DNA of 44,545 nucleotides from Escherichia phage 6948. A program made the translations under genes and the position numbers. How positions within the stretch are numbered: the stretch's first letter is position 1; each line of letters opens with the position of its first letter. Positions 3,406-28,262 of the stretch are shown here, one piece after another. Where the stretch lies: sequence record OL362272.1. The stretch is one strand, 5' to 3'. The notes below the pieces were generated by a model. It ran no database searches and was not told the origin of the DNA. It saw nothing but the letters and a program-made list of their open reading frames with translations.

Positions 3406-3555
3406 ATGAAAAAGCTGTTCAAATCTAAGAAGGTTGTAGGTGCACTAGTTGCATTGGCAATTGCTCTTGTTTCTGTAGGTCTTGGTGTAGACCTTGGCTC
3501 TGGCACGGAATCCTCTGTGACAGATGTGGTCTGCCAAGTGATCACCTGTGAATAA
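3406..3555 (+). CDS. small single-TM membrane protein, possible lysis accessory
   Basis: 49 aa, RBS GGGAGG 8 nt upstream; basic N-terminus then hydrophobic helix VVGALVALAIALVSVGLGV; absent from the ORF track because <60 aa. Confidence 0.35.
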   Translation: MKKLFKSKKVVGALVALAIALVSVGLGVDLGSGTESSVTDVVCQVITCE

Positions 3556-3769
3556 GTTTCTAGAAGTTCTGGCAGGTCTTATTGGCCTGCTTGTCTCTGC
3601 TAAGAAGAAACAAGAAGAGAAGGAGGCACAAAGTGAAGCGAATCATGTTAGTGACAACCCTTCTGATTGGTTCGCTGACCACTTCCGGGTGTCAGCAGGC
3701 GTTACCAGAGAAAGCAATGGTGAAACCCCTGAGGCCGACGCTGACGGCAGTTTACGAGGTAGACGATAA
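3548..3769 (+). CDS. putative i-spanin (Rz-like)
   Basis: 73 aa, GTG start overlapping the previous stop; N-terminal hydrophobic helix FLEVLAGLIGLLVSA then charged region; the o-spanin-like frame is partly embedded in it. Short for an Rz, so tentative. Confidence 0.35.
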   Translation: MNKFLEVLAGLIGLLVSAKKKQEEKEAQSEANHVSDNPSDWFADHFRVSAGVTRESNGETPEADADGSLRGRR

Positions 3770-3842
3770 GGTCTGCTTTAGTAAGCCTGACGCTACAAAA
3801 CTTGGTTTGTACATTCTCTCGCTAGAACGCGGATACAATTAA
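3633..3842 (+). CDS. putative o-spanin (Rz1-like outer-membrane lipoprotein)
   Basis: GTG start with AGGAGG 8 nt upstream; signal peptide KRIMLVTTLLIGSLTTSGC with lipobox LTTSG|C, Pro-containing short mature part; overlapped arrangement with the preceding frame is typical of Rz/Rz1. Confidence 0.55.
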   Translation: MKRIMLVTTLLIGSLTTSGCQQALPEKAMVKPLRPTLTAVYEVDDKVCFSKPDATKLGLYILSLERGYN

Positions 3843-3871
3843 TACATAGCTTTATGTATCAGTGTCTTACG

Positions 3872-3894
3872 ATTTACTGGACACTATAGAAGAG
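3872..3894 (+). promoter_or_regulatory. phage-RNAP promoter upstream of tailspike 1
   Basis: ATTTACTGGACACTATAGAAGAG. Confidence 0.75.
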
Positions 3895-3973
3895 GTAAGA
3901 TAGCGCCGTTCTTTTGAGCGGCCTATTACTAGCCAATCTTCATAGGGAGGGTTGGAAAGTAATAGGAGATAGC

Positions 3974-5872
3974 ATGGCTAAATTAACCAAACCTAATACT
4001 GAAGGAATCTTGCATAAAGGACAATCTTTGTATGAGTACCTTGATGCGAGAGTTTTAACATCAAAGCCGTTTGGTGCTGCAGGTGACGCCACTACTGATG
4101 ATACGGAGGTTATAGCTGCTTCATTAAACTCTCAGAAAGCTGTCACAGTCTCAGACGGTGTATTCTCTAGCTCTGGTATTAATAGTAATTACTGTAACTT
4201 AGACGGCAGGGGTAGTGGCGTGCTAAGTCACCGTTCAAGTACAGGTAACTACTTAGTATTTAACAATCTACGTGCAGGTCGCTTAAGTAATATTACGGTA
4301 GAAAGTAATAAGGCGACTGATACAACTCAGGGACAGCAGGTATCCCTTGCTGGTGGAAGTGATGTTACTGTAAGTGACGTTAACTTCTCAAACGTTAAAG
4401 GTACTGGTTTCAGTTTAATCGCATACCCTAATGATGCGCCACCGGATGGACTTATGATTAAAGGCATTCGAGGTAGCTATTCCGGCTATGCTACTAATAA
4501 GGCAGCCGGATGCGTACTTGCTGACTCCTCAGTTAACTCCCTCATAGATAACGTCATTGCTAAGAACTACCCTCAGTTCGGAGCAGTAGAGTTGAAAGGT
4601 ACAGCCAGTTACAACATAGTCAGTAATGTTATAGGGGCAGATTGCCAGCATGTAACTTACAACGGCACTGAAGGGCCAATAGCTCCTTCTAATAACCTTA
4701 TCAATGGGGTGATGGCTAATAACCCTAAGTATGCAGCGGTTGTTGCAGGCAAAGGGAGTACTAACTTAATCTCAGACGTGCTCGTAGATTACTCAACTTC
4801 TGATGCTAGGCAGGCTCATGGTGTTACCGTAGAGGGATCTGATAACGTCATAAATAATGTGCTTATGTCAGGATGTGATGGTACTAACTCTTTAGGACAA
4901 GGGCAGACTGCTACAATTGCACGCTTTATAGGTACAGCTAATAACAACTATGCGTCTGTATTTCCTAGCTACAGTGCTACAGGTGTTATTACTTTCGAAT
5001 CCGGCTCTACCCGTAACTTCGTAGAGGTAAAGCACCCTGGCAGGAGAAACGACATTCTCAGTTCTGCTAGTACTATTGACGGTGCAGCTACTATTGACGG
5101 CACTAATAATAGTAACGTAGTGCACGCACCTGCCTTAGGGCAGTACATAGGTAGTATGTCAGGTAGGTTCGAATGGCGGATTAAGTCCATGTCACTCCCT
5201 TCAGGTGTTCTTACTTCTGCTGATAAGTACAGAATGCTTGGAGATGGTGCTGTGTCATTAGCTGTAGGTGGGGGCACTTCTTCTCAAGTTCGCCTATTTA
5301 CTTCTGATGGTACTTCTCGGACAGTGTCCATCACCAACGGTAACGTGCGTCTTTCTACCAGTAGCACAGGCTATTTGCAGTTAGGTGCTGATGCAATGAC
5401 CCCAGATAGTACTGGTACATACGCATTAGGTTCCGCCAGTCGAGCATGGTCTGGCGGTTTTACTCAAGCAGCATTCACTGTTACCTCAGATGCTCGGTGT
5501 AAAACAGAACCTCTTACTATCTCAGATGCATTACTAGATGCTTGGTCTGAAGTTGACTTTGTGCAGTTTCAGTATTTGGATCGTGTTGAGGAGAAGGGTG
5601 CAGACTCAGCTAGATGGCACTTCGGTATCATCGCTCAGCGAGCTAAGGATGCCTTCGAACGTCACGGTATAGATGCACATCGCTATGGCTTCTTGTGCTT
5701 CGACAGTTGGGATGATGTATACGAGGAAGATGCCAATGGCTCTCGTAAACTGATTACACCAGCAGGTTCCCGCTACGGTATTCGTTACGAGGAAGCACTG
5801 ATATTAGAGGCTGCGTTGATGCGGCGGACTATTAAGCGTATGCAGGAAGCACTAGCTTCCCTGCCTAAGTAA
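3974..5872 (+). CDS. tailspike 1: beta-helix capsule depolymerase with C-terminal intramolecular chaperone (peptidase S74-like) domain
   Basis: 632 aa from ATG 3974 (RBS AGGAG); Ser/Thr/Gly/Asn-rich beta-helix-like repeats; C-terminus TVTS-DARCK...LDAWSEVDFVQFQYLDR...WHFGIIAQ matches the autoproteolytic chaperone module of endosialidase/K5-lyase-type tailspikes. Confidence 0.85.
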   Translation: MAKLTKPNTEGILHKGQSLYEYLDARVLTSKPFGAAGDATTDDTEVIAASLNSQKAVTVSDGVFSSSGINSNYCNLDGRGSGVLSHRSSTGNYLVFNNLRAGRLSNITVESNKATDTTQGQQVSLAGGSDVTVSDVNFSNVKGTGFSLIAYPNDAPPDGLMIKGIRGSYSGYATNKAAGCVLADSSVNSLIDNVIAKNYPQFGAVELKGTASYNIVSNVIGADCQHVTYNGTEGPIAPSNNLINGVMANNPKYAAVVAGKGSTNLISDVLVDYSTSDARQAHGVTVEGSDNVINNVLMSGCDGTNSLGQGQTATIARFIGTANNNYASVFPSYSATGVITFESGSTRNFVEVKHPGRRNDILSSASTIDGAATIDGTNNSNVVHAPALGQYIGSMSGRFEWRIKSMSLPSGVLTSADKYRMLGDGAVSLAVGGGTSSQVRLFTSDGTSRTVSITNGNVRLSTSSTGYLQLGADAMTPDSTGTYALGSASRAWSGGFTQAAFTVTSDARCKTEPLTISDALLDAWSEVDFVQFQYLDRVEEKGADSARWHFGIIAQRAKDAFERHGIDAHRYGFLCFDSWDDVYEEDANGSRKLITPAGSRYGIRYEEALILEAALMRRTIKRMQEALASLPK

Positions 5873-7682: not shown

Positions 7683-7832
7683 ATGCCATTAATCAAATCA
7701 GTTAAGCAAAGTGCTGTACGCCAGAACACAGAAGAACTTATTCAATCAGGACGTGACCCTAAGCAAGCCTATGCGATTGCCAAGGATGTACAACGTCGTG
7801 CTATGAAGAAACCTTCTGCATCTTCTGCGTAA
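7683..7832 (+). CDS. small hypothetical protein
   Basis: 49 aa basic peptide, RBS AGGAAG upstream; not in ORF track (<60 aa). Confidence 0.3.
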   Translation: MPLIKSVKQSAVRQNTEELIQSGRDPKQAYAIAKDVQRRAMKKPSASSA

Positions 7833-7902
7833 GCAGGTTAATATCTTAGTGTACACAAGGGCAGACCTAGGTTTGCTCTTAGTGTAATCCAAAGGAGGTA
7901 AC

Positions 7903-8031
7903 ATGCTGAAAGATGGTTGGGTTTCATATGACCCTACAGACCCTACGAATTGGCTACAGGTTATCGCTATAGCTTGTGCAGGTAGCCTATTGGCTGCCAT
8001 GATGTATTCATTATGGATGTACACAAAGTAA
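7903..8031 (+). CDS. small hydrophobic protein
   Basis: 42 aa, strong RBS AAAGGAGG 7 nt upstream; one predicted TM helix (LQVIAIACAGSLLAAMMYSLW). Confidence 0.35.
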   Translation: MLKDGWVSYDPTDPTNWLQVIAIACAGSLLAAMMYSLWMYTK

Positions 8032-8680
8032 CCAAAGTCAAAATTTTGATGTAGGCGTGTGTCAGCTCTCTCGCCCTCGCCCTCGCCGGGTTGCCCCCAT
8101 AGGGTGGCCTGAGGGAATCCGTCTTCGACGGGCAGGGCTGATGTACTCCTTGGATAGTACAAGGGGGGGCGGAGGGAACGCCTAGGGAGGCCCAGGAATG
8201 GCTTAGTGGTGGACAAGGTGATTACCTTAGTGAAGCCTCTTAGTGCAGTCCTGAGGCCATTCAGGGCCATTCCTGAGCGTTTGACAGGGTGGGAGGGTGT
8301 GGGCTATCTGTTCGTTTCGTTCACTCCGCTTGCGCTACGTTCACTCGCTCACGTGTACCTTAGGTTATTCCTTGATGGATAGCTTAGGTTAGCCTTAGTG
8401 GACTACCTTAGTTAAAGCCTTAGTGCTTCACTTAGTATCAGCTTAGTAGTGTGCCTTAGTAAGTCTTAGTGTCTTCTCTTAGTGATTGCACATGCAAGCA
8501 TGTAAGATGCCATTAGGTCGCGGTCGGTAGACCGCTAAAGAAGAAGTATAGTAATAAGATGCAGTAGGAGGAACACCAGAAACCTAGCCAACCTAGCCTA
8601 TCCTAGCTCTGTATCTATTGCTTTTCCTTAGTCTAACATGTGAGACAACCTAGATTTATCTTAGTGATGATATCTTAGTG

Positions 8681-8709
8681 TTGACAAGGCCATCTCAATA
8701 TAATACTAT
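8681..8709 (+). promoter_or_regulatory. candidate host sigma70 early promoter
   Basis: TTGACA (8681-8686), 17-nt spacer, TACTAT (8704-8709); upstream of the first early ORFs. Confidence 0.3.
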
Positions 8710-8781
8710 TCATCACGTAGGCAGCACTGAGGTGCTTAGTAGCCAGCTAGTAAGGCATACGAAGAGACTAGCGCTTACATT

Positions 8782-8794
8782 GCTCTTTAACAAT
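8782..8794 (+). promoter_or_regulatory. conserved early-region 13-mer GCTCTTTAACAAT (copy 1), candidate RNase III processing element
   Basis: Exact 13-mer occurs three times in the early region; the same motif sits just upstream of gene 0.3 in T7, as recalled. Confidence 0.3.
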
Positions 8795-8810
8795 TTGCTT
8801 AGTGTAACCT

Positions 8811-9032
8811 ATGTATGCCGTGGTTAATTACTTATTGAATGAGGGATTAACTATGACATTAAACAACCGTGAACTATCCGTTCTCTTCACTCTGTTGTGC
8901 TACATGATTCGTAACAACAAATTGCTTACAGATGACGAGTTGGCACTGTATCACCGCTTTCTTAACGAAGGTTGGACCGATACAGTTAATCAACACCGTA
9001 ACATGATAGATGAGTTGAGGGAGGGTAAATAA
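8811..9032 (+). CDS. early hypothetical protein
   Basis: ORF of 73 aa; an internal ATG at 8853 with GAGGGA upstream is an alternative start. Confidence 0.35.
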   Translation: MYAVVNYLLNEGLTMTLNNRELSVLFTLLCYMIRNNKLLTDDELALYHRFLNEGWTDTVNQHRNMIDELREGK

Positions 9033-9256
9033 TGTATCAACATGAGGTATTCTTTGAATCAGCTAGCGAAGCTATTCGCTTCTTTGAGGACATGCTGCGA
9101 AATGGTGTAGGTGTGCATGTACATAGCTTTCTACTAGATTATGACACTGAATATCACCGAGTTACCTTAGTATCTGAGTATGACAACCAAGTCATTACTG
9201 AGTATCTAGGCAGTGAAGATTACGATTACGATGAAGTAATCACGACAAATATCTAA
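9032..9256 (+). CDS. early hypothetical acidic protein
   Basis: 74 aa, RBS GAGGGAGGG; acidic, Tyr/Asp/Glu-rich C-terminus (SEDYDYDEV). Confidence 0.45.
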   Translation: MYQHEVFFESASEAIRFFEDMLRNGVGVHVHSFLLDYDTEYHRVTLVSEYDNQVITEYLGSEDYDYDEVITTNI

Positions 9257-9264
9257 ATTAACTG

Positions 9265-9293
9265 TTGACAGCCACGGCATACAAGGTTACATT
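9265..9293 (+). promoter_or_regulatory. candidate host sigma70 early promoter
   Basis: TTGACA (9265-9270), 17-nt spacer, TACATT (9288-9293). Confidence 0.3.
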
Positions 9294-9326
9294 AAGCATC
9301 AAGACGGCGACGTCTTTAAACATCCC

Positions 9327-9339
9327 GCTCTTTAACAAT
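9327..9339 (+). promoter_or_regulatory. conserved early-region 13-mer GCTCTTTAACAAT (copy 2)
   Basis: Exact repeat; preceded by palindrome AAGACGGCGACGTCTT (9301-9316). Confidence 0.3.
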
Positions 9340-9385
9340 ACGGTTTGTGTCTTGATAGGCTAACTAACTAACTAAGGTAATTATC

Positions 9386-9496
9386 ATGAAAGGTTTAATT
9401 TGTGTAGAACGTATGGTCAATGGTAAACTTGAAATATTACCACTGGAAAACCAATCTAGCTTCAAAGAGTGGTATGGCTGTTTCTCACTGATTTAA
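9386..9496 (+). CDS. small early hypothetical protein
   Basis: 36 aa; preceded by the multi-frame stop string TAACTAACTAACTAA and an A-rich RBS; flanked by inverted repeat CTTGATAGGC (9349) / GCCTATCAAG (9513). Confidence 0.25.
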   Translation: MKGLICVERMVNGKLEILPLENQSSFKEWYGCFSLI

Positions 9497-9538
9497 GGTA
9501 AAGGCTGGCACTAGTCAGCCTATCAAGGCGCAAACCAA

Positions 9539-9551
9539 GCTCTTTAACAAT
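9539..9551 (+). promoter_or_regulatory. conserved early-region 13-mer GCTCTTTAACAAT (copy 3), upstream of the Ocr-like gene
   Basis: Exact repeat about 95 nt upstream of the gene 0.3 start. Confidence 0.3.
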
Positions 9552-9647
9552 TTGGATGGTAGCTTCTTAGTCTGGATAGGTTAAACCTAGGGGATTCTCT
9601 TGAGTCTCCTATAATGTAACCTAACTAACTAAATGAGGATTAATAAC

Positions 9648-10001
9648 ATGGCTATGTCTAATATGACTTACTCTCAGGTTTACAACACCGCTCATGCTGC
9701 ATTAGTTGAACGTATCTGGAATGATGCTATTGATTGTATTGATAACGCACATGATGCAATCCATGATGCGGCGGATAGTGCTGTACCAATCTATTATGCT
9801 GACATCTTCTCCGTGATGGCGAGTGAAGGAATTGATCATTTCTTCGAAGACTCCGGCCTGATGCCAGACACTAAGGATGTAACCGTAGTATTGCAAGCCC
9901 GTATCTATGAGCAACTCACAATTGATCTATGGGAACGTGTTCAGTATATGATTGTTGAATACGTCAACTCCGCCGAATATTTAGAAGAAGAAGAGGAATA
10001 A
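9648..10001 (+). CDS. ocr: Ocr-like DNA mimic, anti-restriction protein (T7 gene 0.3 homologue)
   Basis: 117 aa starting MAMSNMTY..., contains [45 protein letters not shown] and a poly-Glu C-terminus, matching T7 Ocr as I recall it; RBS GAGGA. Confidence 0.85.
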
Positions 10002-10003
10002 GA

Positions 10004-10117
10004 ATGGAAAAGCTATACAACTTCATCTTTTCAGACGGTGTAACCCTGAAGTGTTCCCTGCGTTTCGCACAAATTCGTGAGGAAGTACTAGGCACTACAT
10101 ACAAACTATTTAGCTGA
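10004..10117 (+). CDS. small early hypothetical protein
   Basis: 37 aa; ATG 3 nt after the Ocr stop. Confidence 0.25.
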   Translation: MEKLYNFIFSDGVTLKCSLRFAQIREEVLGTTYKLFS

Positions 10118-10130
10118 CACTATAAGAGAA
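10106..10130 (+). promoter_or_regulatory. variant phage-RNAP promoter-like site in the early region
   Basis: TATTTAGCTGACACTATAAGAGAAG; closest in this window to the SP6 form ATTTAGGTGACACTATAG but the initiating G is displaced. Confidence 0.4.
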
Positions 10131-10193
10131 GGCTTAACAAGGCGTTGCTACGGTAGCGCCTGATTAAACTTTCACTTACTAGGAGTTAAGACT

Positions 10194-10421
10194 ATGGATT
10201 TAGATAGCATCATTATGGCATTTGCTCTTATTGGCTTAAGCTGGTGCTCCTATCACCTTTACCGTGAGTTCTTATTTGATAAAGCTAAACGCAAACTAAG
10301 AAAGGAAGGCGGCAATTACCTTTGTGTAAGAGGTGGGCTTGTAGAATACATTGCACCTAACGGCACGGAATGCGCCATTAGCAAAGATGCATTTATAGAA
10401 ACGTGGCATTACATCAAGTAA
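10194..10421 (+). CDS. early hypothetical membrane protein
   Basis: 75 aa, RBS TAGGAG; N-terminal hydrophobic helix IIMAFALIGLSW. Confidence 0.45.
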   Translation: MDLDSIIMAFALIGLSWCSYHLYREFLFDKAKRKLRKEGGNYLCVRGGLVEYIAPNGTECAISKDAFIETWHYIK

Positions 10422-10484
10422 CTAGCCTATAGCCTACCTGAGTGGGCTATGTGATATTTACTTACACTATATAAGGTGACTATT

Positions 10485-11408
10485 ATGACTACTGAAAACA
10501 TCCTCCTGTCTGTCCGTGAAGCTGCAACCGCTGAGATTAAGCAGCATTTGGATAATATCGGCACTTCTTACATCAAAGTTGGCGCTTGTCTGAATGAATT
10601 ACGCGGTGATTTCGAAGGTCAAAAAGACTTTTTAGCTTATGTAGAATCAGAGTTCGGCATCAAGAAAGCACAATGCTACAAGCTGATGAGTGTAGCCCGT
10701 GTCTTTGAAGGAGACGAACGCTTTAAAGGTGTGGCTATGCGTGTAATGCTGGCGCTTGTTCCTTTCGCTGATGAAAATATGATCATGGAGAAGGCCGCAG
10801 AACTCGCCGCAGAGGGCAAGCTGGACACTAACGCCGTAAACGCCCTGATTGATCCTAAGAAAGAGACAAAGGCCGAGACGGTACAACCTAAGGTTGAGTC
10901 GGTAAAACCGCAGGAGAACGCGACTGAGGCCGCAGAAACTATGCAAGGACATGCAACCTTTGAGGATTTCATATTAGAGAAGGCGAAAGAGGAGCTACAA
11001 AGTGTGCCGCCAGCAAGTGAGTCGGATGACGACAAATCAGCACCGTGGGAAGAGGAAAGCAAGCCGGAAGCGCCAAAGGCCGCGCCACTGGACAACACGG
11101 CTAACACCGAGAGTGCCGCTATTGCTGGCCTTCTGGCACAAATTAAAGCACTGACTGAGCAATTACAGGCAGCCAATGACCGCATCGCCTCCTTAAGTAG
11201 CGCACGCGAAAGCAAGAAGGCAGCCGCGCCTATGCTGCCGCAATTCAAATCTTCCTGCTTCTATGCTCGCTTAGGTTTAAGCGCTGAGGAGGCAACGAAG
11301 AAAACAGCAGTTAACAAGGCACGCCGCGAACTGGTTAAGCTAGGCTACGGCGAAGGCCATGAAGCATGGCCCTTAATCTCTGAGGCAGTAGAAGAATTAA
11401 CTAAGTAA
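10485..11408 (+). CDS. early hypothetical protein (gp0.7 slot; no kinase motifs seen)
   Basis: 307 aa from ATG 10485 (RBS AAGGTGA); structured N-terminal part followed by acidic/Ala-rich coiled-coil-like region. Confidence 0.55.
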   Translation: MTTENILLSVREAATAEIKQHLDNIGTSYIKVGACLNELRGDFEGQKDFLAYVESEFGIKKAQCYKLMSVARVFEGDERFKGVAMRVMLALVPFADENMIMEKAAELAAEGKLDTNAVNALIDPKKETKAETVQPKVESVKPQENATEAAETMQGHATFEDFILEKAKEELQSVPPASESDDDKSAPWEEESKPEAPKAAPLDNTANTESAAIAGLLAQIKALTEQLQAANDRIASLSSARESKKAAAPMLPQFKSSCFYARLGLSAEEATKKTAVNKARRELVKLGYGEGHEAWPLISEAVEELTK

Positions 11409-11471
11409 CCTTATCGGTGGCATCTTCTTAGGTGTCACCTATTAAGGTTTCTTTCACTAGGAGTAAACAAG

Positions 11472-14099
11472 ATGCAAGACCTACACGCTATTCAACTTCA
11501 ACTTGAAGAAGAAATGTTTAACGGCGGTATCCGTCGCTTTGAAGCGGACCAACAACGCCAGATTGCATCCGGTAATGAATCAGACACGGCATGGAATCGC
11601 CGCTTATTGTCCGAGTTAATCGCGCCAATGGCTGAAGGTATTCAGGCATACAAGGAAGAGTATGAAGGTAAAAGAGGCCGTGCACCGCGTGCATTAGCTT
11701 TCATTAACTGCGTAGAAAACGAAGTGGCAGCATATATCACGATGAAAATCGTTATGGATATGCTGAACACGGATGTAACCTTGCAGGCTATAGCCATGAA
11801 TGTAGCTGACCGCATTGAGGACCAAGTACGTTTTAGCAAGCTGGAAGGTCACGCCGCCAAATACTTTGAGAAAGTTAAGAAGTCACTTAAGGCAAGTAAG
11901 ACTAAATCATATCGCCATGCGCACAACGTAGCGGTCGTGGCTGAGAAGTCAGTAGCTGACCGTGACGCTGATTTCTCTCGCTGGGAGGCATGGCCTAAAG
12001 ACACCTTGCTGCAAATTGGGATGACCTTGCTTGAAATCTTAGAGAATAGCGTATTCTTCAACGGGCAACCTGTCTTCCTCCGCACCTTGCGCACTAATGG
12101 TGGCAAGCATGGTGTTTACTACTTACAGACCAGTGAGCACGTAGGGGAGTGGATTACAGCATTTAAAGAACATGTAGCGCAACTTAGTCCAGCCTATGCT
12201 CCTTGCGTCATCCCTCCGCGTCCGTGGGTATCACCTTTTAACGGCGGTTTCCACACTGAGAAAGTAGCAAGCCGTATTCGTCTGGTAAAAGGAAACCGCG
12301 AACACGTCCGCAAGCTGACCAAAAAGCAAATGCCAGCGGTTTACAAGGCTGTTAACGCTTTGCAGGCGACTAAGTGGCAGGTTAATAAAGAGGTTTTACA
12401 GGTTGTGGAGGACGTTATACGTCTAGACCTCGGCTATGGTGTACCTTCCTTTAAACCACTCATCGACCGTGAGAACAAGCCAGCTAATCCGGTGCCGTTA
12501 GAGTTCCAGCACCTGCGAGGCCGTGAACTGAAAGAAATGCTTACGCCGGAACAATGGCAAGCCTTTATCAACTGGAAAGGTGAATGTACTAAGCTGTACA
12601 CCGCTGAAACTAAGCGCGGAAGCAAATCGGCGGCAACCGTTCGCATGGTTGGTCAGGCCCGTAAATATAGCCAGTTCGACGCAATCTACTTCGTGTATGC
12701 ACTGGACAGCCGCAGCCGTGTATACGCGCAATCTAGCACGCTCTCGCCGCAATCAAACGACTTAGGCAAGGCATTGCTCCGTTTTACCGAAGGGCAGCGT
12801 CTTGATAGCGCTGAGGCGCTTAAGTGGTTTTTGGTGAACGGGGCGAATAACTGGGGTTGGGATAAGAAAACTTTTGACGTGCGCACCTCTAACGTGCTGG
12901 ATGGCGAATTTCAAGACATGTGCCGCGACATTGCAGCCGATCCGCTGACCTTCACTCAATGGGTAAATGCTGATTCCCCTTACGGCTTCCTTGCATGGTG
13001 CTTTGAATATGCGCGTTATCTGGATGCACTGGATGAAGGCACGCAAGACCAATTCATGACGCATCTACCCGTCCATCAAGACGGTAGTTGCTCTGGTATC
13101 CAGCACTATAGCGCGATGTTACGCGATGAAGTAGGTGCGAAAGCAGTAAACCTTAAGCCTTCTGACTTCCCTCAAGATATTTATGGCGCGGTTGCGCAGG
13201 TTGTTATCCAGAAGAATTACGCCTACATGAATGCAGACGATGCAGAGATTTTCACATCTGGAAGCGTCACACTTACAGGTGCAGAACTGCGTAGCATGGC
13301 TAGTGCGTGGGATATGATAGGAATCACTCGCGGATTGACCAAAAAGCCCGTAATGACACTACCTTATGGCAGCACACGTCTAACCTGCCGTGAATCAGTG
13401 ATTGATTATATCGTTGATTTGGAAGAAAAAGAGGCCCAACGAGCTATTGCGGAAGGGCGTACCGCCAATCCTGTACATCCTTTTGATAATGACCGTAAGG
13501 ACAGCCTGACACCTAGTGCAGCTTATAACTATATGACGGCTTTAATCTGGCCTTCTATTTCGGAAGTGGTTAAAGCTCCTATAGTGGCAATGAAAATGAT
13601 TCGTCAGCTTGCCCGTTTCGCAGCTAAAAGGAATGAAGGCTTAGAGTATACCTTGCCTACTGGCTTCATCTTGCAACAAAAGATTATGGCTACCGACATG
13701 CTACGCGTATCCACTTGCTTGATGGGTGAAATCAAGATGAGTCTACAGATTGAGACTGATGTAGTGGATGAAACGGCTATGATGGGCGCTGCTGCTCCTA
13801 ACTTTGTTCACGGGCATGATGCTAGTCATCTCATCCTGACTGTATGTGACCTCGTTGACAAGGGCATTACATCCATCGCAGTCATCCATGATTCTTTCGG
13901 TACTCACGCAGGCCGTACAGCCGATCTACGTGATAGTCTAAGGGCAGAAATGGTGAAGATGTATCAAGGCCGTAATGCCCTGCAAAGCCTGTTAGATGAG
14001 CATGAAGAACGCTGGTTAGTAGACACCGGAATCCAAGTGCCAGAGCAAGGAGAGTTTGACCTTAACGAAATCTTAGTATCTGACTATTGCTTCGCATAA
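11472..14099 (+). CDS. single-subunit DNA-directed RNA polymerase (SP6-type)
   Basis: 875 aa; motifs [31 protein letters not shown] and C-terminal ...YCFA typical of T7/SP6 RNAP; N-terminus [16 protein letters not shown] resembles SP6 RNAP as recalled. Confidence 0.95.
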
Positions 14100-28064: not shown

Positions 28065-28262
28065 ATGTCTTTTGATTCTATGAAGGCAACTCGTGCTGTT
28101 GAGGTAGCAGAGGCCATCTTCGAAACTCTATCCTGTGGCATGGAAGTGCCATATACTTTACTGGCTGATGCAGAAGAACTTGGTCTTTCTGTAGAAGCTA
28201 TCCAAGAGAAGGTTGACGAATTATATGGTACAGACGAAGAAGAAACCGACGATTTCATTTGA
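28065..28262 (+). CDS. small acidic hypothetical protein
   Basis: 65 aa, RBS AAAGGGGG; acidic C-terminus TDEEETDDFI. Confidence 0.4.
   Translation: MSFDSMKATRAVEVAEAIFETLSCGMEVPYTLLADAEELGLSVEAIQEKVDELYGTDEEETDDFI

Follow-up and report, generated by a model that had tools for sequence, protein, structure and literature searches.

Does the small, highly acidic protein encoded near the left end of an SP6-like coliphage genome act as a second DNA mimic beside Ocr, or does it serve the infection by other means? The protein, here called gp2, is encoded by Escherichia phage 6948 (sequence record OL362272.1), and the window analyzed is the whole stretch of 44,545 nucleotides, to which all coordinates refer unless another genome is named. 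A first-pass annotation had described a 74-aa product with a C-terminus rich in Glu, Asp and Tyr (SEDYDYDEV), encoded next to an Ocr-like gene, and had proposed a further mimic or an anti-defence protein. As an interpretation this was a reasonable hypothesis, and the analysis described below supports it only in its general part, that of an early accessory host-interaction protein.

The reading frame, the gene before it and the ribosome-binding signal between them are arranged as follows.

8853-9032, plus strand: gp1, 59 aa, helical, phrog_9275
9017-9025, plus strand: Shine-Dalgarno sequence GAGGGAGGG, read from the sequence, 7 nt 5' of the gp2 ATG and inside the 3' end of gp1
9032-9256, plus strand: gp2 coding sequence, ATG start, 74 aa, corresponding to K1-5 gp2, K1E gp2 and SP6 gp4, phrog_6403

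The coordinates given by the first-pass annotation proved exact. The protein has the sequence MYQHEVFFESASEAIRFFEDMLRNGVGVHVHSFLLDYDTEYHRVTLVSEYDNQVITEYLGSEDYDYDEVITTNI and ends in ...LGSEDYDYDEVITTNI, and the SEDYDYDEV stretch occupies residues 61-69. It contains 16 Asp or Glu, 3 Lys or Arg and 7 Tyr residues, with a pI of 4.18 and a net charge of -13 at pH 7. In acidity per residue it ranks second, above Ocr, among the plus-strand ATG reading frames of at least 50 aa in the window. The gp2 ATG shares bases with the gp1 stop codon (TAATG), an overlap that suggests translational coupling of the two genes, and gp1 is found upstream of family members in some cases and not in others. The protein is already catalogued as hypothetical (K1-5 gp2, phrog_6403).

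The phage belongs to the Autographiviridae, subfamily Molineuxvirinae, genus Vectrevirus (K1-5/SP6-like). The 1.5 kb around gp2 are 99.5% identical to Vectrevirus LI10P3/LI10P5, whose copy of the protein differs by one residue from the window allele, and 92-97% identical to many K1-5/K1E-like E. coli phages. The gp2 proteins of K1-5 (YP_654100) and K1E are 85% identical to that of the window, and share with it both family and genomic position. As the first-pass annotation held, gp2 is an early gene of an ocr-carrying region, but the phage is of the SP6/K1-5 type and would not count as T7-like if that term is used narrowly. The genome was assembled in circularly permuted form. Because its physical left end lies at about window position 8073, gp2 falls in the early region, about 960 nt from that end, where only one cistron (gp1) separates it from the leftmost sigma70-like promoter. 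The part of the genome transcribed by the host RNA polymerase ends at the phage RNA polymerase gene (11472-14099). The gene has an equivalent early position in K1-5, K1E, SP6 and phages of Klebsiella, Lelliottia and Citrobacter, and in every locus whose context was examined the family member is found no more than 1-2 kb into the genome and precedes both the polymerase gene and ocr, or whatever replaces ocr.

The elements that surround gp1 and gp2 in the early region are listed below.

8681-8709, plus strand: P1, the leftmost sigma70-like promoter, TTGACA, 17 nt spacer, TACTAT, matching 10 of 12 consensus positions
8782-8793, 9327-9338 and 9539-9550, plus strand: three exact copies of the boxA sequence GCTCTTTAACAA
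8796-8825, plus strand: 5' arm of a long-range RNA helix (about 28 bp) enclosing gp1-gp2
9265-9293, plus strand: P2, a second sigma70-like promoter from the consensus scan, after the gp2 stop codon
9270-9298, plus strand: 3' arm of the helix, starting 14 nt past the gp2 stop codon and overlapping P2
9648-10001, plus strand: Ocr gene, PF08684, E 8.5e-42

Transcription of gp1 and gp2 is probably driven by P1. The sequence GCTCTTTAACAA we take to be an rrn-type boxA, named from the known rrn boxA consensus; a scan allowing at most one mismatch found four matches, a number reached by none of 100 shuffles. The helix that encloses gp1 and gp2 is present in the MFE fold of 8716-9300 and again in its centroid fold (z -5.05). 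It is kept in all 19 of the Vectrevirus loci examined despite variation in the enclosed genes, with a distance from boxA to gp2 of 237-556 nt, and it recurs with other arm sequences in Klebsiella, Lelliottia and Citrobacter-type phages. Across the Molineuxvirinae, RNAalifold on the joined arms gives 28 pairs, 9 of them with compensatory changes. We infer an RNase III-type processing or stabilizing stem. An Rfam scan of 7700-11500 returned no family, only sub-threshold matches to a miRNA model at a palindromic hairpin, where both strands were hit. What stays constant in this first early RNA module is the gp2-family gene, and in one clade (L025) the gene is present with neither boxA nor stem. 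The Ocr gene that had been placed beside gp2 is real and lies downstream, but it begins 391 nt away, and the interval holds a sigma70-like promoter, two boxA copies and a 36-aa reading frame; relatives differ in the genes that fill this interval.

The gp2 gene is a real gene under purifying selection. The protein matches the phrog_6403 profile with an E value of 1.4e-27, residues 1-74 aligning to positions 1-69 of 69, and a search of 5.8 billion proteins returned 46 homologue clusters, each of 74 aa, at 65-95% identity and nearly all on contigs of about 44 kb. The dN/dS ratio over 18 distinct DNA alleles from phage records is 0.18 (Nei-Gojobori), residues 1-33 giving 0.20 and residues 34-74 giving 0.11. 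When close relatives are compared, the N-terminal half, which comprises helix 1 and strand 2 of the predicted fold, evolves much faster than the C-terminal half; between the window and K1-5, pN/pS is about 0.7 in the former and 0.18 in the latter. Synonymous change is plentiful even in the nearly invariant C-terminal half, where pS reaches up to 0.65, and the conservation of this half is therefore at the level of the protein and not of promoter or stem DNA. An overlap with these elements was considered as its cause and rejected, since the stem arms lie outside the coding sequence and the synonymous sites vary freely. In the 46 close sequences, E62, D63, Y64, D65 and Y66 are invariant, and D67 and E68 are at least 90% conserved.

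Divergent members of the family were collected by a profile search of 1.84 billion representatives and by a second, word-seeded search. They share 21-38% identity, and nearly all of the aligned members measure 69-77 aa. Placement with tblastn located members in SP6 (1268-1474) and in Salmonella, Klebsiella, Citrobacter (CrRp3), Pectobacterium (POP72), Lelliottia (phD2B) and Raoultella phages, and a member from Pectobacterium phage PP1 was added through a fold match in BFVD. All 29 diverse members match phrog_6403, and the family is spread across the Molineuxvirinae. Scans of gp2, gp1 and the distant homologues with Pfam, NCBIfam and PADLOC gave nothing meaningful, and none of the 29 diverse members carries a Pfam family. 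Two motifs define the family, an N-terminal M[YFH]xHE[IV][FY] and, near the C-terminus, [YF][DE][DE]VIT, which in the window protein read MYQHEVF and YDEVIT. In the 29-sequence alignment H4 and E5 are invariant, and V69, I70 and T71 are at least 90% conserved. The net charge, which ranges from -9 to -15 in the Vectrevirus clade, is only -2 to -3 in the members from Klebsiella and Lelliottia phages, which have MINVNYEE or SLNLNFEE where gp2 has SEDYDYDE. Strong acidity is a trait of the Vectrevirus clade and not of the family. Of the basic residues only R43 is widely conserved, and outside the clade it is not kept.

A resemblance to PPR proteins was also considered. The matches were summed ones to plant and designer PPR proteins, along with a match to PPR_2 (E 0.029) in 4 of the 29 members, and residues 12-33 (EA..L.E.M...GV..D..TF) resemble the consensus. 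The candidate was rejected because no single stretch passes the threshold, the region is predicted as helix-loop-strand, and 22 residues cannot form a PPR; we judge the resemblance a short-motif coincidence amplified by the repeats.

Structure prediction with AlphaFold2 gave a pLDDT of 89.7 from the close alignment and of 92.9 from the diverse alignment, with all five models above 91. The predicted elements are strand beta1 (residues 2-8), helix alpha1 (11-23), strands beta2 (28-36) and beta3 (39-48), helix alpha2 (52-61) and strand beta4 (68-73). The protein is thus confidently predicted to form a compact ferredoxin-like beta-alpha-beta-beta-alpha-beta domain. Because of this order of elements, the acidic C-terminus of the first-pass annotation would constitute the loop between alpha2 and beta4 together with the last core strand, and no disordered tail is predicted. 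The only good matches in BFVD are uncharacterized proteins of CrRp3, Pectobacterium PP1 and Proteus PM116 (TM 0.75-0.86), and these are themselves members of the gp2 family, predicted independently.

For the surface mapping, CA and CB coordinates were taken from the AlphaFold model that Silas et al. published for orf24, a divergent member of the family (Supplementary File 7). The geometry of these coordinates was checked (CA-CA distances of 3.69-3.89 Å), and gp2 was placed on them through the hhalign alignment, in which the model has a 5-residue gap relative to gp2. In the mapped model Y2, H4, V6, F8, V30, H42, V44, L46, V69 and T71 belong to the core and face the two helices. In orf24, the ND1 atom of H4 lies 2.6 Å from the OG atom of S66, at the position of Thr71; because it is buried and within this distance of a hydroxyl, the invariant His4 is probably structural. 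The open face of the sheet is formed by Q3, E5, F7, H29, H31, F33, Y41, R43, T45, E68, I70 and T72. On it, the invariant or near-invariant positions E5, F/Y7, E68 and I70 lie 4-8 Å apart with low half-sphere exposure counts. This conserved, partly hydrophobic and exposed patch of E5, F7, E68 and I70 is the most likely candidate for a functional or oligomerization surface.

In the DYDYD stretch of the same mapped model, Tyr64 and Tyr66 are buried and Asp63, Asp65 and Asp67 face away from the core, their CB atoms 8.0 and 7.9 Å apart. They form part of a band of carboxylates (D63, D65, D67, E62, E13, E68, E9, E40, D38 and D36) whose neighbours are 4-8 Å apart at the CB atoms, distances taken from the homologue's model with its 5-residue gap. 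The band runs along one edge and across one pole of the domain, which measures about 35 Å. Phosphates along a DNA strand are spaced by about 7 Å, and the spacing of the modeled band resembles that of a nucleic-acid backbone; the band is nonetheless a clade-specific decoration.

A peptide text search of paper supplements linked the family to the work of Silas et al., in which 200 phage accessory genes, of the kind associated with counter-defence, were screened, two gp2-family members (UDP0096 and UDP0024) among them (bioRxiv 10.1101/2023.04.06.535777). UDP0096 corresponds to AFH19829.1, gp2 of phage ACG-C91, which is 82% identical to the window protein and identical to gp2 of one of the loci examined here (L007). 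No phenotype is listed for UDP0096 across about 20 E. coli hosts and phages T2-T7, P1 and lambda, in a figure that omits genes lethal in all hosts and so would not display a generally toxic one, and the same screen scored the restriction inhibitors Ocr, ArdA and Ral (bioRxiv 10.1101/2023.04.06.535777). UDP0024 is orf24 (AUE22229.1) of Escherichia phage VEc3, which is described in an ocr-containing accessory region and whose expression is lethal in ECOR61 via a prophage locus with an Icd-like effector (bioRxiv 10.1101/2023.04.06.535777). Its membership of the gp2 family is indicated by an hhalign probability of 98.4% (E 5.7e-15), at 16% identity in the profile alignment. Apart from the work of Silas et al., no functional study of gp2 turned up in our search of the literature on K1-5, K1E and SP6 gp2, Vectrevirus, phrog_6403 and boxA, and preprints on phage gene essentiality make no mention of SP6/K1-5-like phages, Autographiviridae or Ocr.

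VEc3 has the RNA polymerase gene closest to that of the window (96.5% identity). By blastn, its early region matches window positions 8853-9007 at 88% and 9254-10196 at 93.5%, the flanks being 88-97% identical overall, and no DNA similarity was found across 9008-9253. Orf24 thus replaces the gp2 gene from gene end to gene end, with retention of the flanking boxA and stem. We conclude that divergent homologues trade places at one fixed locus in the manner of a cassette. Phage records with the acidic gp2 type number about 58, compared with 71 Escherichia or Vectrevirus records that carry this RNA polymerase. The cassette exchange, taken with the faster evolution of the face formed by helix 1 and strand 2, looks like the outcome of host-interaction pressure.

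We tentatively favour, at somewhat less than an even chance, the explanation that gp2 is a stoichiometric protein-binding effector that uses the conserved patch of its sheet to act on a factor of the host or of a prophage. The explanation draws on the very early position of the gene, the small compact domain, the exposed patch, the acidity of the clade, the cassette exchange and the prophage-sensed relative. According to it, gp2 would be made from the very first transcription unit of the host RNA polymerase, before Ocr, as an early (class I) accessory protein, and would act by stoichiometric binding of a host or resident-prophage protein and not by catalysis. The contact surface would be the exposed face of the four-stranded sheet with E5, F/Y7, D/E68 and I70. 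In Vectrevirus this surface may be extended by the carboxylates of E62, D63, D65, D67, E68, E9, E40, D38 and D36, and with the acidic band a partner that is basic and binds nucleic acid would be favoured. The locus behaves like an arms-race cassette: divergent members swap precisely in it, and at least one of them is detected by a prophage-encoded abortive system. That gp2 binds a partner, which surface it uses and that it has a role in host takeover or counter-defence are all steps that we infer.

Three considerations count against this effector explanation. The orthologue UDP0096 has no listed counter-defence or conditional-lethal phenotype. The presence of the family throughout the subfamily is more like that of a conserved early housekeeping function than that of a fast-turnover anti-defence gene. 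Finally, the surface mapping is derived from a homologue's model with a 5-residue gap relative to gp2. The first of these also tempers the anti-defence role proposed by the first-pass annotation, which in turn gains from the accessory character of the locus, the sensing of orf24 by a prophage and the allelic replacement.

A more specific version of the effector explanation appears doubtful, namely that gp2-family proteins might be a new family of ferredoxin-fold inhibitors, made before Ocr, of a conserved enterobacterial nucleic-acid-handling protein. In Vectrevirus the DYDYD carboxylate strip would act as a mini-mimic of nucleic acid, and the divergent alleles, gp2-type and orf24-type, would be swapped in evasion of prophage sensors such as the Icd-like system of ECOR61.

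Outright nucleic-acid mimicry would be a narrower form of the effector explanation. We consider it unlikely that the acidic band, perhaps doubled in a dimer, mimics a stretch of DNA or RNA backbone and competitively blocks a host nucleic-acid enzyme such as RecBCD, RNA polymerase, a restriction or BREX-type system, or H-NS, in the manner of Ocr, T7 Gp2, T7 gp5.9 or Ugi. The charge of -13 in 74 aa, maintained at strongly negative values throughout the Vectrevirus clade, argues for such a function, as do the invariance or near-invariance of E62 to E68 in the close sequences and the outward-pointing Asp63, Asp65 and Asp67, whose modeled spacings come near to that of DNA phosphates. In addition, the annotation of K1-5 names no homologue of T7 Gp2, gp0.7, gp5.9, gp1.2 or gp5.5, and T7 Gp2 is, weakly, the top small T7 protein by hhalign. 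The match to T7 Gp2, however, has a probability of only 7% and covers 16 columns. Members from Klebsiella and Lelliottia phages keep the fold, the position and the motifs at a net charge of only -2 to -3, and the longest dimension of the domain would span about 10 bp at most. Against the Pfam ocr model gp2 has no match at E <=0.1, and none of the 29 members has one at E <=10; no solved DNA mimic is found among the fold matches of gp2. For the further mimic first proposed, no relation in sequence or fold to Ocr or to any solved DNA mimic was found. The screen, which scored Ocr, ArdA and Ral, reports no restriction-inhibitor phenotype for the orthologue.

Decidedly improbable is a role of gp2 in the phage's own early expression, by way of the host RNA polymerase, of Nus-factor antitermination at the three boxA copies, or of RNase III processing of the early RNA modules bracketed by the stem. 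Its sole supports are the genomic context and a fold match of the uS10 type. The latter is unspecific, since uS10 scores no better than hundreds of unrelated ferredoxin-like proteins, and CutA and PII score higher. Moreover, an acidic protein with three basic residues is a poor RNA binder, replacement by a 16%-identical member in an otherwise near-identical phage would be unusual for a core regulator, and the clade that lacks boxA and stem has the gene all the same.

It is very improbable that gp2 forms a PII-, CutA- or ACT-like oligomer that binds a small molecule, for example as a sponge for an immune signalling nucleotide. The predicted core is of the appropriate kind, but Pfam and NCBIfam models for PII and CutA detect no family signature in gp2, insertions of the size of a T-loop are missing (74 aa compared with 95-112 aa), and the extreme negative charge with three basic residues disfavours the binding of an anionic nucleotide; R43, moreover, is absent as a conserved residue beyond the clade.

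That gp2 is a chance reading frame or a DNA-level element, as its small size, its want of a Pfam family and the conserved promoter and stem just 3' of it might suggest, is effectively excluded by the low dN/dS with abundant synonymous change, the constant length in 46 homologues, homologues down to 21-30% identity that keep the predicted fold, the Shine-Dalgarno sequence and coupled start, and stem arms that lie outside the coding sequence.

To the catalogue entry the present analysis adds a fold predicted with confidence, a position for the conserved patch, a connection between gp2 and the orf24 trigger, the exact exchange of alleles and an RNA module that is itself conserved. Phages of the SP6/K1-5 type find use in therapy against encapsulated E. 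coli, Klebsiella and Salmonella, yet none of the takeover functions of T7 (inhibition of RNA polymerase, RecBCD, dGTPase or H-NS) has an assigned gene in them. The gp2 protein is the first or second that these phages make and is conserved in the subfamily, and a target identified for it would fill part of this gap. Furthermore, a trigger that is a divergent, precisely swapping allele of gp2 illustrates how defence sensors may be evaded through the exchange of cassettes.

In comparison with known systems, gp2 resembles Ocr (T7 gp0.3) in its general properties, as both are early, small, of a pI of about 4 and rich in Asp, Glu and Tyr. Their sequences are dissimilar, however, and so are their shapes: Ocr is all-helical and elongated and mimics about 24 bp of bent DNA, whereas gp2 is predicted as a compact alpha/beta sandwich of about 35 Å with four strands and two helices. 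T7 Gp2, an inhibitor of the host RNA polymerase with 64 aa and a negatively charged strip, resembles the window protein in being small, acidic and phage-encoded and in its row of carboxylates, but it is the product of a middle gene and gp2 belongs to the earliest transcription unit. It was the best of 28 small T7 proteins against the family profile, weakly, with residues 5-20 of gp2 aligned to 30-45 of T7 Gp2 over one beta-alpha unit. The secondary-structure order of T7 Gp2 is beta-beta-alpha-beta and that predicted for the window protein is beta-alpha-beta-beta-alpha-beta; as a homologue T7 Gp2 was rejected (hhalign probability 7.4% over 16 columns, hmmsearch E 0.67). The ferredoxin-like beta-alpha-beta-beta-alpha-beta core predicted for gp2 is common to the CutA, PII-like and ACT sandwiches. 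Within the family itself, orf24 shares with gp2 both the locus and the predicted fold, and the two differ at the C-terminus, which reads EWEEVNSNKV in orf24 and DYDEVITTNI in gp2.

The position of gp2, the 74-aa acidic early protein, is occupied differently in the related phage VEc3 (L029, NC_047899), where a precise cassette replacement exchanges window 9008-9253 for VEc3 1116-1336. Identity in the flanks is 88-97%, whereas no similarity to VEc3 at the DNA level is seen across the gp2 coding region. The VEc3 occupant is orf24, a distant relative within the gp2 family that is published as triggering a cell-death system encoded by a prophage (Silas et al., bioRxiv 10.1101/2023.04.06.535777). 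In Lelliottia phage phD2B (L013, 1720-2136) and Klebsiella phage VLCpiA2a (L012, 4045-4563), the place of ocr, downstream of the gp2-family gene, is taken by another gene; one of these two genes is annotated as a SAM-dependent methyltransferase and the other encodes a 172-aa hypothetical protein. Because the ocr position is taken by other genes in some relatives, retention of the gp2-family gene is independent of Ocr.

Three labels in public records of relatives are annotation oddities: in SHAK7704 (L019, OR594181, UNVERIFIED), the gp2 homologue at 1501-1725 is covered by a misc_feature with the label DNA primase/helicase; in P433.1 (L011, MN384978), the gp6 homologue at 3436-4320 is called endolysin; and in mutPK1A2 (L010, MG004687), Ocr at 1899-2228 is called a putative protein kinase. 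The SHAK7704 record also gives its classification as Kayfunavirus.

Residues 12-33 of gp2 (window 9065-9130; helix 1-loop-strand 2), with the pattern EA..L.E.M...GV..D..TF, come close to the pentatricopeptide-repeat (PPR) consensus, and plant and designer PPR proteins consequently reach high, spurious summed scores in profile searches. A PPR relationship was rejected and the resemblance judged a coincidence, one that could misdirect automated annotation.

A second candidate acidic small protein is encoded in the middle or late region at 28065-28262 (+) (65 aa, pI 4.05). This ORF, which matches phrog_5860 (function unknown), has the highest negative charge per residue within the window.

The early leader contains three exact copies of an rrn-type boxA, GCTCTTTAACAA. 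Their coordinates and those of other elements are as follows.

8782-8793, 9327-9338 and 9539-9550: boxA copies
8796-8825 with 9270-9298: long-range RNA helix of ~28 bp, downstream of the first boxA and enclosing gp1-gp2
9342-9366 with 9512-9536: second long-range inverted repeat, with 88% complementarity over 25 nt, 3' of the second boxA
9386-9496: 36-aa ORF, bracketed by the second inverted repeat
10004-10117: gp4
10115-10190: irregular long hairpin in the gp4/gp5 gap (MFE -31.2 kcal/mol, z -5.4)
10194-10421: gp5

The helix around gp1-gp2 is kept in 19 Vectrevirus loci and has counterparts in Klebsiella, Lelliottia and Citrobacter-type phages, with compensatory changes at 9 of the 28 pairs. 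The literature searched contains no description of this boxA and helix arrangement. The 36-aa ORF has no match in a PHROG search, and gene content in its region differs among relatives (for example, K1E 2.5 and 2.8). The early accessory genes appear to be housed in repeated boxA-plus-stem modules.

The hairpin between gp4 and gp5 matched an Rfam miRNA model below threshold on both strands, and resembles a T7-style RNase III site separating early cistrons. The early leader itself, with boxA followed by an RNase III-like stem, is arranged like an rRNA operon.
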